Source of the DNA: Escherichia coli
Lineage (GTDB): Bacteria > Pseudomonadota > Gammaproteobacteria > Enterobacterales > Enterobacteriaceae
Assembly: GCF_016903815.1 (NCBI RefSeq)
Contig: NZ_CP069973.1
Strand: one strand, 5' to 3'
Length of the DNA: 64,000 nt
Shown here in pieces: positions 53,774 to 57,229 of this stretch. Numbering within the stretch: the stretch's first letter is position 1; each line of letters starts with the position of its first letter. The position numbers and the translations under genes are program-made. Under the pieces are notes generated by a model. That model was not told where the DNA came from and ran no database searches. It was given only the letters and a program-made list of their open reading frames with translations.

Positions 53774-54231
53774 GAGAGGTTAACTATGAGGCGCTTCGTG
53801 AGGCAGCACAAAACTATCAGTCGACGCTGGCGTGGTATCAGGCTATCCCGGACAGCCCAAATGCTGAACGGGATTGTGATGCGGCTCTTGCTGCGTTTAA
53901 GCGTCACATCCGTCATCGGGAAGCGGATATTATCGCTGATTTGCTGGATGGACTGGAAGAAGCAAAATCACAACTCAACGAGCAGCGTGAGTATTACGAA
54001 GGCGTTATCTCTGATGGGAGTAAGCGTATTGCTGAACTGGAAGCGCGGGAAGTTCAATTACCGACTCGCTACGACCTTCGATATGGACACCCGATAAATG
54101 CAGATGAGCGACATGTCATGATACCTAAAGAAAATGGCAGTTGGCTTTACCTGATTGACCTAGAACACGCATTACGCGTCGCTGGCATTCGCATCAAAGG
54201 AGAGGAGCATGGAAATAAAACCAGAGGATGA
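53770..54231 (+). CDS. Hypothetical phage protein
   Basis: 153-aa ORF, overlapping stop/start with neighbours. Confidence 0.45.
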   Translation: MREVNYEALREAAQNYQSTLAWYQAIPDSPNAERDCDAALAAFKRHIRHREADIIADLLDGLEEAKSQLNEQREYYEGVISDGSKRIAELEAREVQLPTRYDLRYGHPINADERHVMIPKENGSWLYLIDLEHALRVAGIRIKGEEHGNKTRG

Positions 54232-54565
54232 GTTAAGCAATATCGTTTTATTTCCGGTAAAAGAGGATGACCCTCGTAATCAGGTTAATTTTCTTTATGA
54301 GTCATCGGAAAGACCATATTGTCATCACGCCTCTGTTCGGGTTGACGAAAAAGAGCGTCAGGTCCGCTGTAAAATCTGCGGTGCAGTTGTGGAGCCGTTT
54401 GACTGGATGCTCTCTGTGGCGAAAAGAGAAACCAGACTGGCAGATGATGTAAGGCTATTGCGCCAGGAGGAACAGGAAAGGCGGAAAAATATAGAAAAGT
54501 TAATTCAGATTGAGCGTAACGCGAAAGCGCGGATATGCAGGGCGACAAAATCCAGAACTGAATAA
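54209..54565 (+). CDS. Hypothetical zinc-ribbon-like protein
   Basis: 118-aa ORF with CHH...CKICG pattern. Confidence 0.4.
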   Translation: MEIKPEDELSNIVLFPVKEDDPRNQVNFLYESSERPYCHHASVRVDEKERQVRCKICGAVVEPFDWMLSVAKRETRLADDVRLLRQEEQERRKNIEKLIQIERNAKARICRATKSRTE

Positions 54566-54660
54566 TTAAATTTAGCACTGTTAAAAATTTTATCCTTAAC
54601 CGGAGGGATTTCTGCACCCTCAGAACATCAGGAGGCCGCCCGAAAGGGCGGTAATGAAAA

Positions 54661-55068
54661 ATGACTGAATTAACAAAAGAGCAATTAATCGAAGAAGCCA
54701 AATTAAAAATAGCGATTGCGAAATGCCACACGAATTCAGGGATGGCACGGGTAGAGGGTGAGTTATTCAAAATTGCACTGGCATCGCTAGAAGCGGAACC
54801 GATAGCGTGGAAATGCGGCGAAAACATAATCCTGTTTAATCCTGACACAGTTGAAGCATACGCAAAACGTGCGGAGATATCACCTAAACCACTATTCGCA
54901 GCTCCACCTGTGCCGGTTGTGTCTGAAGGACTGGTTAAAGCCGTGCGCTTCTATGAAAAGGTTAAGCGTGAAAATCCGCCAGTCGAAACCGGAGCATGGA
55001 AAGACGCTGTTGACTGGGTGCTCAAAGAGGCCTGCCAGGTTGTAAACACTGGCATCAAAGGAGACTGA
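54661..55068 (+). CDS. Hypothetical phage protein (shares N-terminal module with the 328-aa protein)
   Basis: 135-aa ORF; AAPPVPVVSE linker motif. Confidence 0.5.
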   Translation: MTELTKEQLIEEAKLKIAIAKCHTNSGMARVEGELFKIALASLEAEPIAWKCGENIILFNPDTVEAYAKRAEISPKPLFAAPPVPVVSEGLVKAVRFYEKVKRENPPVETGAWKDAVDWVLKEACQVVNTGIKGD

Positions 55069-55069
55069 T

Positions 55070-55435
55070 ATGGCACTGACGAAAAAACAACGTGCAGAAT
55101 TGCGCATGAAGTTTGGCGGTCGCTGTGCTTATTGCGGCTGTGAACTTGGCGAAAAGTGGCATGCAGACCATGTAAAACCGGTCATTCGTTTTAATGGAAA
55201 TATGCTTCACCAGGAACGTGACGATATATCCAACATGGTTCCGGCATGCCACCCATGCAATCTGCACAAGCATTGCAGTAGCCTGGAAGACTATCGGCGA
55301 ATTATCAGTGATGGTCGTCGTGAATTCCTTGCGTCCGGGAAAGGCAAAGCGCTGGTTCGTATGGGATTGGTTGAAATGAAATCTGACCCGGTTGTGTTCT
55401 GGTTTGAAAAATATCAAGAAGGGGCTACAGCATGA
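55070..55435 (+). CDS. HNH endonuclease
   Basis: 121 aa; CAYCGC...HADHVKP...N...CHPCNLHKH HNH motif. Confidence 0.8.
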   Translation: MALTKKQRAELRMKFGGRCAYCGCELGEKWHADHVKPVIRFNGNMLHQERDDISNMVPACHPCNLHKHCSSLEDYRRIISDGRREFLASGKGKALVRMGLVEMKSDPVVFWFEKYQEGATA

Positions 55436-56418
55436 CCACTATTACCAATAAGAAACAGTATCCCAGCGAGCAATATCTTAATGAGCTTATCACCAACATA
55501 GAGTTTGCTGCAAGGGCACCAGTTGAAGTCGTGAGCGCAATGGCAGCAGAGCTACAGAAGCGGCGCGAAGCTGATAGCGCAGAACCAGTTGCTTATATTT
55601 TCAAACATCCGGCCGGGAAATTATTCTGGGCTTTAACGGATGAAAGCAATAAAGAGCAAGCGGACGTTATTCCTGTTTATGCCGCCCCTCCAGTGCCAGT
55701 AGTATCTGAAGAAAAACCAATGCCTAACCCTCTTAAAATGTACGCGGTCGATGATGTTGCCGCTATTGCAGAGGTGAGAGGCTGGAATGCCTACCGCGCC
55801 GCCATGCTTCAGAGTCAGGGGGAAGGCAACCCTCATGTAACCCCGGCTCGCCTGCCTGGTGGTTTCACCATTGAGGATGCGAAGGTGTTACATGAAGACC
55901 TTGTACGTAGCCACATAAGCCAGGCTTTAAGTGGCGAAAAGATGAAAAAGAAAGATCGCGATGCTGATTTGCGCTGGATTCATGGCGTAATAGTTCAGGC
56001 CGCGTGGTTTGTAAAGGCATCACTGGAGCAGAATGCACTATCGGGCAACTCTCCGGTAATTCCTGGTGAGGTGTTGTCCGCAATCCGGGAGGTTGCCAGG
56101 ATTCGCGCCGATTTCGATGATTTTGACGGTGACAGGCGAGGTATCGGTGATTGTCTGGATGAGGCCGAGCAAGAGCTTATCGTTACCATTAACAAATATG
56201 CCAGTCAGTTGGCAGTAGAGCCGGTAGTACCTGATGACGTTCTGGAACAGACAGTAGCGTCGCCAGCGCTAGGTAACCAGGTTAGCGAATTAACAATGTG
56301 GGTTAAACGACTGGTCAGTCAACTGAAAAAAGCTCAGCCGGACTGCAAATTACCGGAGAAGGCGATGGATTACCTGAAACGAAATGGACTGATAAGCGTG
56401 GAGGATGTTTTACGATGA
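55432..56418 (+). CDS. Hypothetical phage protein
   Basis: 328-aa ORF; AAPPVPVVSE motif after an N-terminal module paralogous to 54661-55068. Confidence 0.5.
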   Translation: MTTITNKKQYPSEQYLNELITNIEFAARAPVEVVSAMAAELQKRREADSAEPVAYIFKHPAGKLFWALTDESNKEQADVIPVYAAPPVPVVSEEKPMPNPLKMYAVDDVAAIAEVRGWNAYRAAMLQSQGEGNPHVTPARLPGGFTIEDAKVLHEDLVRSHISQALSGEKMKKKDRDADLRWIHGVIVQAAWFVKASLEQNALSGNSPVIPGEVLSAIREVARIRADFDDFDGDRRGIGDCLDEAEQELIVTINKYASQLAVEPVVPDDVLEQTVASPALGNQVSELTMWVKRLVSQLKKAQPDCKLPEKAMDYLKRNGLISVEDVLR

Positions 56419-56799: not shown

Positions 56800-56976
56800 A
56801 TAACTGCGGGTGCTTGAGGCTATCTGTCTCAGGCATGAACACCAAAAGGCAGATAGAGAAAAGCCCCAGTTAACATTACGCGTCCTGCAAGACGCTTAAC
56901 ATTAATCTGAGGCCATATCTATGCGACACATAGAGATTAGCCTCTTACGGACCGAAAGGTCAAGGAGAAGCAGGCT
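56800..56976. promoter_or_regulatory. hok mRNA leader with mok-like upstream ORF and expected antisense Sok region
   Basis: 19-codon upstream ORF (ATG 56921) whose TGA overlaps the hok ATG; hairpin gcgtcctgcaagacgc; Sok position inferred, not observed. Confidence 0.35.
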
Positions 56977-57132
56977 ATGAAGCAGCAAAAGGCGATGTTA
57001 ATCGCCCTGATCGTCATCTGTTTAACCGTCATAGTGACGGCACTGGTAACGAGGAAAGACCTCTGCGAGGTACGAATCCGAACCGGCCAGACGGAGGTCG
57101 CTGTCTTCACAGCTTACGAACCTGAGGAGTAA
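56977..57132 (+). CDS. hok: Hok/Gef-family type I toxin
   Basis: Hand translation MKQQKAMLIALIVICLTVIVTALVTRKDLCEVRIRTGQTEVAVFTAYEPEE (51 aa), essentially the HokD/RelF sequence as recalled. Confidence 0.85.
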   Translation: MKQQKAMLIALIVICLTVIVTALVTRKDLCEVRIRTGQTEVAVFTAYEPEE

Positions 57133-57200
57133 GAGACCAGGCGAGGGAGAAATCCCTCGCCACCTCTGATGTGGCAGGCATCCTCAACGCACCCGCACTT

Positions 57201-57229
57201 AACCCGCTTCGGCGGGTTTTTGTTTTTAT
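57201..57229 (+). terminator. Rho-independent terminator after hok
   Basis: aacccgcttcggcgggtttttgtttttat. Confidence 0.75.

Follow-up and report, generated by a model that had tools for sequence, protein, structure and literature searches.

Two accessory proteins of an Escherichia coli lambdoid prophage as probable cassette mosaics sharing a proline-rich junction

Two genes of an Escherichia coli lambdoid prophage, here referred to as A and B, probably belong to one very large family of accessory proteins of lambdoid prophages, in which each was assembled independently from interchangeable cassettes that are exchanged at conserved junctions. A and B have in common a start motif, M-T-x-[ILF]-T, a set of frame residues, AEP-[IV]-A-[WY] ... 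P-[LV]-[FY], and the identical decapeptide AAPPVPVVSE. The mosaicism of the Ea22/DUF551-type family and of lambdoid phages is already established, and the arrangement A-HNH-B is an ordinary further example of it; the undescribed detail is the recurrent proline-rich junction. A full-text literature search with the string PPVPVV returned no papers, and no description of the proline-rich linker and its framed mini-domain was found in the searchable literature.

The window, i.e. the whole stretch of 64,000 nucleotides that was analysed, is an E. coli lambdoid (Rac/Qin-like) prophage in which the genes follow the order cI/cro, YdaT, DnaT-like, P, DUF1627, DUF977, DUF4406, Ead/Ea22-like, a 118-aa zinc-ribbon ORF, A, HNH, B, hokD, rem, DUF968, RusA and Q. 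A reading of the DNA letters alone (hereafter the sequence-only reading) had placed ORFs of 135 and 328 aa on either side of an HNH endonuclease gene, and these coordinates are confirmed, with all three ORFs on the plus strand. Its assignment to the nin region is positionally right because of the gene order: A, HNH and B occupy a nin-like position in a rightward operon, with the replication genes on one side and RusA and Q on the other. The genes of this region meet at ATGA stop/start overlaps. The last codons of A, AAA GGA GAC TGA, include the hexamer AAGGAG, positioned as a putative ribosome-binding site for the HNH gene, and the HNH stop codon is the TGA inside the ATGAC start of B. The RefSeq annotation of B covers the last 204 aa only, with a start at 55804. 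The features to which the text refers are the following.

54661..55068, plus strand: gene A, putative mosaic accessory protein of 135 aa, matching phrog_660 positions 3-143 of 193
54661..54792, plus strand: A cassette N1, aa 1-44, a predicted helical hairpin whose end is the family junction ..IALASLEA
54793..54897, plus strand: A cassette M2, aa 45-79, AEPIAW ... PKPLF, a predicted strand-strand-helix-strand mini-domain
54898..54927, plus strand: A linker AAPPVPVVSE, aa 80-89, nucleotide lineage GCAGCTCCACCTGTGCCGGTTGTGTCTGAA, predicted to be flexible (low pLDDT)
54928..55068, plus strand: A C-terminal two-helix domain, aa 90-135, and stop codon
55070..55435, plus strand: HNH endonuclease gene, 121 aa, an optional stand-alone cassette with precise bounds
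55432..56418, plus strand: gene B, putative mosaic accessory protein of 328 aa
55432..55578, plus strand: B cassette N1, aa 1-49, a distinct N-terminal type (..AAELQKRREADS)
55579..55680, plus strand: B cassette M2, aa 50-83, AEPVAYIFKHPAGKLFWALTDESNKEQADVIPVY
55681..55710, plus strand: B linker AAPPVPVVSE, aa 84-93, nucleotide lineage GCCGCCCCTCCAGTGCCAGTAGTATCTGAA
55711..56271, plus strand: B internal cassettes, aa 94-280, comprising EKPMPNPL..GWNAYRAAMLQS, a central helical part and the near-invariant block IPGEVLSAIREVARIRADFDDFDGDRRGIGDCLDEAEQEL
56272..56418, plus strand: B tail cassette, aa 281-328, ..ELTMWVKRLVSQLKK..NGLISVEDVLR

The best-matching complete E. coli genomes are 100% identical over the 2.3-kb A-HNH-B region, and 127 complete E. 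coli genomes carry it at a coverage of at least 80%. Two genes upstream of A lies the Ead/Ea22-like ORF of 153 aa (54231 being its last position and 53770 its first), which matches Pfam PF13935 with E=6.3e-12 and 46.7 bits (cut-off 27). No further family members besides A and B were found in the window, and the Rfam matches near A/HNH/B consist of sok/hokD downstream and nothing else. The cassettes of A and B are also found in Shiga-toxin phages such as ArgO145, where they lie in the early-left exo-xis/ea region.

The resemblance between A and B is narrow. AAPPVPVVSE does occur in both proteins with synonymously differing DNA, as the sequence-only reading had noticed: 7 of the 10 codons differ, every change is a synonymous third-position change, and 23 of 30 nucleotides are identical. 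The two linker-coding strings that it quoted are found at 54901-54927 and 55684-55710, with one occurrence apiece. Identical nucleotide runs shared by gene A and gene B reach 10 nt at most, which excludes a DNA repeat between them; this and the exclusively synonymous codon differences of the linker bear out the view that the pair is not a recent duplication. At the protein level, the BLASTP alignment of A against B is confined to A 45-89 and B 50-93 (28.5 bits, E=4e-5). Permutation tests locate the signal within this segment. The ~35 residues ahead of the linker score z=1.8, with 127 of 2000 shuffles equal or better, and the same residues together with the linker score z=9.9, a value that none of 2000 shuffles reaches. 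The pairwise significance comes almost wholly from the decapeptide. The C-terminal parts are unrelated (z=-1.2), as had been proposed, and no relationship is detectable between the first residues of the two proteins (A aa 1-44 against B aa 1-49, z=-0.5). The idea of a shared N-terminal module of about 90 aa is overstated: the first 44-49 residues lack detectable similarity and the next ~35 share frame residues only.

Profile methods lead to the same place. An iterative HMM search seeded with B aa 1-50 recovered its own tight subtype and never reached the A N-terminus. A leave-out profile was built from 20 other mini-domain cassettes, with the A and B types excluded, and assigns 13 bits to A and 13 bits to B; none of 1000 full shuffles reaches this score. 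When the interiors alone are shuffled and the frame residues kept, 13 bits are reached in 396 of 1000 cases for A and in 86 of 1000 for B, and the profile signal therefore sits in the frame residues and not in the interiors. By the profile and the interior shuffles, the mini-domain interiors of A and B have no detectable similarity beyond these frame residues. Homology over the whole N-terminal 90 aa is rejected on the combined results of BLASTP, permutation, iterative HMM search and leave-out profile with interior shuffles. A comparison of the A and B family alignments by hhalign gave a probability of 99.6, which was discounted as non-independent because both alignments hold mosaic relatives carrying each other's cassettes.

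The wider family makes sense of this pattern. Against the PHROG collection A matches phrog_660 (E=9.5e-51, profile positions 3-143 of 193) and phrog_60 (E=1.6e-14), and B matches phrog_6847 with aa 1-97 (E=2.3e-55) and phrog_60 (E=8.3e-15), both A and B entering the phrog_60 profile at position 116; all three are phage protein families of unknown function. The tail of B, aa 281-328, matches phrog_660 at profile positions 146-193 (E=2.3e-29), and the same tail cassette ends the 187-aa relatives of A. The search for homologues of A gave 1645 matches in which its parts are reused in many combinations. A aa 1-124 joined to a 60-residue tail that matches the B tail makes up the 187-aa proteins (e.g. 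P0018); the N-terminal part of A is joined to DUF551 in P0086 and to an 'Eaa' tail in P0099 (at least 1000 contigs); P0039 joins an Ead/Ea22 N-terminus to the C-terminal part of A; and P0054, P0057 and P0088 correspond to A with an unrelated mini-domain swapped in, including a CxxC...CxxC zinc-ribbon version. Homologues of B number at least 7972, mostly with DUF551 C-termini, and among them the six cassettes of B are swapped independently, every combination being seen. Some distant relatives hold two or three tandem 'EPVAx...PxY-xPPxP' mini-domains per protein.

Family membership can be captured by a working definition that combines a start and frame, M-[TA]-x-[ILF]-T followed by ..EP-[IV]-[AG]-[WYF] ... 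[LVI]-[YF], with a linker, [AST][AT]PP[VA]P[VL][VT][PS][ED], present once per protein. A and B each carry the start, frame and linker elements; homology of the mini-domain interiors was not found between family members. Relatives of A and B are annotated as Eaa/EaA, Ea22 or DUF551. The Pfam model Ead_Ea22 (PF13935) leaves A and B unmatched, as do all Pfam models at E<=1, and DUF551 (PF04448) is absent from both, although DUF551 is present in many close homologues with the same N-terminal cassettes.

Among the 240 closest homologues, 129 have the linker, one copy each, as AAPPVPVVPE in 66 cases and as AAPPVPVVSE in 23, with further variants; when viral contigs were scanned with degenerate codons, 91 such stretches came up. 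The sequence-only reading had suggested a search for the linker motif across phage proteomes, and these searches return a recurrent conserved motif. In phage contigs AAPPVPVV[SP]E is encoded by 11 distinct 30-mers that fall into at least three nucleotide lineages, namely the B-type GCCGCCCCTCCAGTGCCAGTAGTA.., a second type GCCGCTCC[CA]CCCGTTCCAGTAGTACCGGAA and the A-type GCAGCTCCACCTGTGCCGGTTGTGTCTGAA. One peptide written in this many ways agrees with the earlier proposal of purifying selection, and the decapeptide is held by selection at the protein level across several nucleotide lineages. The linker stands behind at least six mutually unrelated upstream cassettes and ahead of at least four downstream ones. 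It can hardly be credited that the match between A and B is a chance coincidence of low-complexity, Pro/Val-rich sequence. The motif is simple in composition (8 of its 10 residues are A, P or V), and the similarity around it is weak by statistical tests, but composition leads one to expect only ~8e-8 identical 10-mers, the shuffles of segment and linker never attain the observed score, and the peptide recurs at one architectural position in hundreds of relatives. The sequence-only reading had named similarity limited to the linker as the result that would tell against it. Pairwise this is nearly what is seen, and family-wide the linker is still a genuine conserved element and not low-complexity noise; judging from its distribution it is a conserved inter-cassette junction.

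The nucleotide sequences around the linker suggest where cassettes join. Among 51 de-duplicated segments, nucleotide identity between the two commonest upstream types is bounded exactly at the 5' edge of the linker. Recombinant combinations make up 7 of the 51, and the association of the alleles changes from the upstream to the downstream type between nt 0-6, 15-27 and 27-56, i.e. with breakpoints inside the linker and in the ~30 nt after it; Fisher p-values for these breakpoints are to be read as indicative, their significance being overstated since phage contigs are not phylogenetically independent. Within each lineage, the linker-coding DNA is the place where cassettes join. Such a breakpoint pattern is equally expected from random recombination combined with selection for in-frame inter-domain joins and from a recombination hotspot. 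The upstream junction ALASLEAEP behaves likewise, with 14 nucleotide versions and various cassettes behind it. The two linker copies of the window share runs of no more than 7 nt inside the linker, and because of this scant DNA identity they cannot recombine with each other.

A picture of family proteins as short interchangeable cassettes, arranged like beads on a string, would accommodate these observations. In such proteins a conserved frame around a hypervariable mini-domain would be formed by ..AEP-[IV]-A-[WY] upstream and by P-[LV]-[FY] followed by AAPPVPVV[S/P]E, and the decapeptide would double as the junction to whichever cassette comes after it. The junction-coding DNA may serve as the crossover site for in-frame exchange of cassettes between co-resident or co-infecting lambdoid phages, by Red/Rad52-type or host homologous recombination, and the proline-rich peptide may keep separately folding units apart as a flexible or extended spacer. 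A-HNH-B would be one combination among such assemblies. The notion that an N-terminal module common to both proteins carries different C-termini fits the family in its general architecture, but the shared unit is a junction that frames dissimilar interiors.

A further, more tentative reading is that the junction peptides might be built-in, in-frame joints that recombine often and generate a combinatorial library of host-interaction cassettes. Among the joints would be the ATGAC start, ..LASLEAEP-VAW, ..PLY-AAPPVPVVPE and ..GWNACR-AMLQ. The proline-rich peptide might be retained because it has an additional function: it could, for instance, be an extended spacer, cause an EF-P-dependent pause in translation between folding units, or offer a common partner a short docking motif.

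Could A and B instead be the products of an in-place tandem duplication, followed by long divergence during which purifying selection spared the linker alone? The two genes are adjacent on the same strand, they have the start motif M-T-x-[ILF]-T in common, the order of predicted secondary-structure elements matches over the first ~85 residues, and the identical decapeptide is saturated at synonymous sites, all of which such a history would explain. We nevertheless regard it as quite improbable. The cassettes and linker lineages circulate separately in many phages and in other combinations, the N1 cassette of B belongs to a tight type of its own that iterative search does not connect to that of A, the cassette interiors lack similarity beyond the frame residues, and other prophages carry a single 187-aa gene (A plus the B tail) at the locus. 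Old paralogy within the genome, as originally suggested, is accordingly a poorer description of A and B than mosaics formed by cassette exchange among lambdoid phages.

Among characterised proteins, the nearest relatives of A and B come from lambda and Shiga-toxin phages: the Ea22 proteins, which are encoded in the exo-xis region and are likewise mosaic lambdoid early accessory proteins. Ea22 genes are mosaic, with a conserved N-terminal part and swapped C-terminal domains, one variant having DUF551 (PMC10834534, PMC7093339), and Ea22 proteins favour lysogeny (PMC10834534, PMC7093339). Unlike Ea22, A and B have neither a PF13935 match nor a long predicted coiled coil, and they sit in a nin-like region of the rightward operon. 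DUF551 has been described as a portable domain (PMC10834534). Among the proteins with DUF551 (PF04448), such as YfdS of prophage CPS-53, and those labelled 'Eaa/EaA', the close relatives P0086, P0099 and P0124 share N-terminal cassettes and the linker with A and B, whereas the C-terminus of A is a two-helix domain and that of B the ..ISVEDVLR tail. Published work shows efficient recombination of diverged DNA by lambda Red, and for lambdoid phages it has been proposed that modules are exchanged through short conserved sequences at their flanks (PMC2327257 and work cited there). The situation described here resembles this modular evolution in that short conserved sequences flank divergent exchanged units. 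It differs in that the units are sub-genic, in-frame stretches of 35-80 residues and not genes or gene blocks, and in that the junction is conserved as a peptide over several nucleotide lineages.

The analysis provides a sequence-level picture of how lambdoid prophages may diversify small accessory proteins by in-frame, sub-genic cassette exchange. It reveals neither a new kind of system nor a function. The very abundant, unnamed junction motif could be used to parse thousands of annotations of the 'hypothetical', Eaa, Ea22 and DUF551 kinds into cassettes.

Structure prediction was another of the checks that had been suggested. AlphaFold2 models have a mean pLDDT of 71.5 for A and of 50.7 for B, the latter model being too weak for a fold search. 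For both N-termini the predicted order is helix, helix, strand, strand, (helix), strand and a low-confidence linker; the alignment used for B includes mosaic relatives, which may bias its predicted N-terminal topology towards that of A. The linker lies between folded units and is predicted to be flexible on account of its low pLDDT. Neither A nor B has a match in Pfam, NCBIfam, PADLOC or the sequences of the PDB. The A model finds no match among PDB folds (best E=0.8), and among viral predicted structures it matches uncharacterised phage proteins only (best E=8e-5). By analogy with Ea22, A and B are probably early accessory proteins whose variable cassettes would engage host or phage targets and affect development.

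The origin of the arrangement can be approached from other E. coli prophages, in which the slot between the Ead/Ea22-like gene and hok is taken by a single 187-aa gene. Window positions 54659-55035 and 56273-56418 are 95-96% identical to this gene, and the 1237 bp in between (55036-56272) stand where the 187-aa gene has 43 bp; the block holds the HNH gene, preceded by the last 11 codons of A and followed by B aa 1-280. Gene A is equivalent to the initial two thirds of the 187-aa form, the last 48 residues of B are equivalent to its tail, and because both match one gene, A and the B tail are the two ends of a commonly continuous architecture. One might conclude that A and B are the halves of a gene of the 187-aa type that was split by the entry of a 1.24-kb block, made up of an end with stop codon and ribosome-binding site, HNH itself and 280 codons from another gene of the family, possibly through HNH homing. 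This seems unlikely, albeit with some evidence on its side: the replacement of 43 bp by 55036-56272 with 95-96% identity on both sides, the coverage of phrog_660 by A plus the B tail, the presence or absence of HNH at a precise site in otherwise similar loci, and a scar in a related phage where an N1 cassette is joined to the last 14 HNH residues. However, the bounds of the HNH cassette are those of the gene and not those of the 1.24-kb block, the 135-aa form with the end ..QVVNTGIKGD is widespread and occurs with several alternative mini-domains, tail-bearing B-like genes exist independently, Yersinia homologues of HNH lie among unrelated nin genes, and a double crossover in shared cassettes suffices without any insertion. 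The arrangement would be most simply explained by such a double crossover. The 135-aa form and tail-bearing B-like genes each circulate on their own, and A and B were, as far as their sequences tell, assembled from this circulating pool and not duplicated in place.

The HNH gene itself is an unrelated, optional cassette that fits precisely into the space from a stop codon to an ATGAC start. It matches Pfam PF01844 (E=1.8e-7, 31.7 bits, cut-off 21.4) and phrog_2118 (E=1e-56), and its translation shows the motif residues CxxC...H-x-D-H...N...CxxC. Nearly all of 700 homologues, from across the Enterobacterales, are stand-alone proteins of ~120 aa, which rules out that A and HNH are parts of a split fusion, an idea raised by the 301 positions of phrog_2118. 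Identity with ArgO145 begins at the HNH ATG and ends at the ATGAC of the next gene. ArgO145 has the order DUF4014-HNH-family gene, and L103 has DUF4014-family gene with clean junctions and no HNH. The gene displays the presence/absence polymorphism at a precise site that is looked for in a free-standing homing endonuclease gene; its flanks differ completely between carriers, which is unlike co-conversion. An obligate pairing of HNH with a family gene is ruled out by Yersinia prophages, where HNH is found among unrelated nin genes, and a Klebsiella prophage has the order Ead_Ea22-HNH-DUF551.

The 328-aa accessory gene downstream of the HNH endonuclease gene (gene B, 55432-56418, plus strand) probably begins well ahead of its annotated start. 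RefSeq/PGAP records only the C-terminal 204 residues, from Met125 (55804), and leaves the 372 nt immediately 5' of that position (55432-55803) without annotation. Translation probably starts further 5' than annotated, since the reading frame is already open from 55432, the ATG at that position overlaps the HNH stop codon in an ATGA, and residues 1-97 of the longer product match the PHROG phage protein family phrog_6847 (profile match, E=2.3e-55).

The HNH cassette carries no stop codon of its own; its reading frame is closed by the TGA contained in the ATGAC with which the next family gene starts, both in the window (55432-55436) and in L001 (6316-6320). An 'MT' start is near-universal in the family to which B and the 135-aa gene upstream of HNH (gene A) belong, and it may thus be constrained by doubling as the stop of the upstream gene. 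At the other end of the HNH gene, A terminates in ..IKGD, its last codons being AAA GGA GAC and the stop TGA (region 55057-55072), so that an AAGGAG lies inside them, a few nucleotides 5' of the HNH start. A Klebsiella Ead_Ea22 gene 5' of HNH ends in the same manner, with ..VEGE before the stop. Ea22 proteins have been described as bearing a 'K/RGE terminal motif of unknown significance' (PMC7093339); the arrangement at the end of A offers a candidate explanation, namely that the motif could be what results when the following gene's ribosome-binding site is translated.

Phage vB_EcoS-689R5 has an ORF that contains the end of HNH:

L005 4385-4552, 55-aa ORF annotated as 'EaA protein'

Its N-terminal cassette, ending ..ALASLEAEP, runs without a gap into the final 14 residues of HNH (VVFWFEKYQEGATA, then stop). 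The fusion resembles the scar of a recombination event at the EP/V junction, in which most of the HNH gene was deleted.

Other architectures also occur among relatives. In the more distant relatives P0498, P0429 and P0408, a single protein has the 'EPVAx...PxY' mini-domain two or three times in tandem, with proline-rich linkers in between, which suggests that this mini-domain folds on its own and can be repeated as a unit. P0127 (392 aa, from an ENA contig) joins residues 1-205 of B to a C-terminal segment with Pfam PF25137; the fusion may be a real chimera formed where a prophage ends, or else an artefact of assembly.

The genes are flanked by the following features:

54209-54565, 118-aa ORF upstream of A, with a CxxC...CxxC zinc-ribbon signature
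56808-56979, full-length match to the sok antitoxin RNA (106.7 bits, E=3e-24), at the hokD locus that lies shortly after B
57141-57222, weak isrK-like match (25.7 bits, under the gathering score of 50)

The 118-aa ORF matches phrog_1621 (E=3.4e-55) and, weakly and under the cut-off, the TFIIB Zn_Ribbon (E=1.6e-4); in other prophages its position is held instead by a DUF4014 gene. The 108-nt intergenic region 5' of A has a fold z of -2.2, and the stretch 54630-54663 that leads into A comprises:

54630-54635, AGGAGG
54635-54652, 7-bp hairpin with a GAAA loop
54661, ATG of A, 3' of both

With the hairpin folded, the distance between the ribosome-binding site and the A start codon would shrink to about 8 nt. 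In the Shiga-toxin phage ArgO145 the gene that follows the same element is not A but DUF4014.
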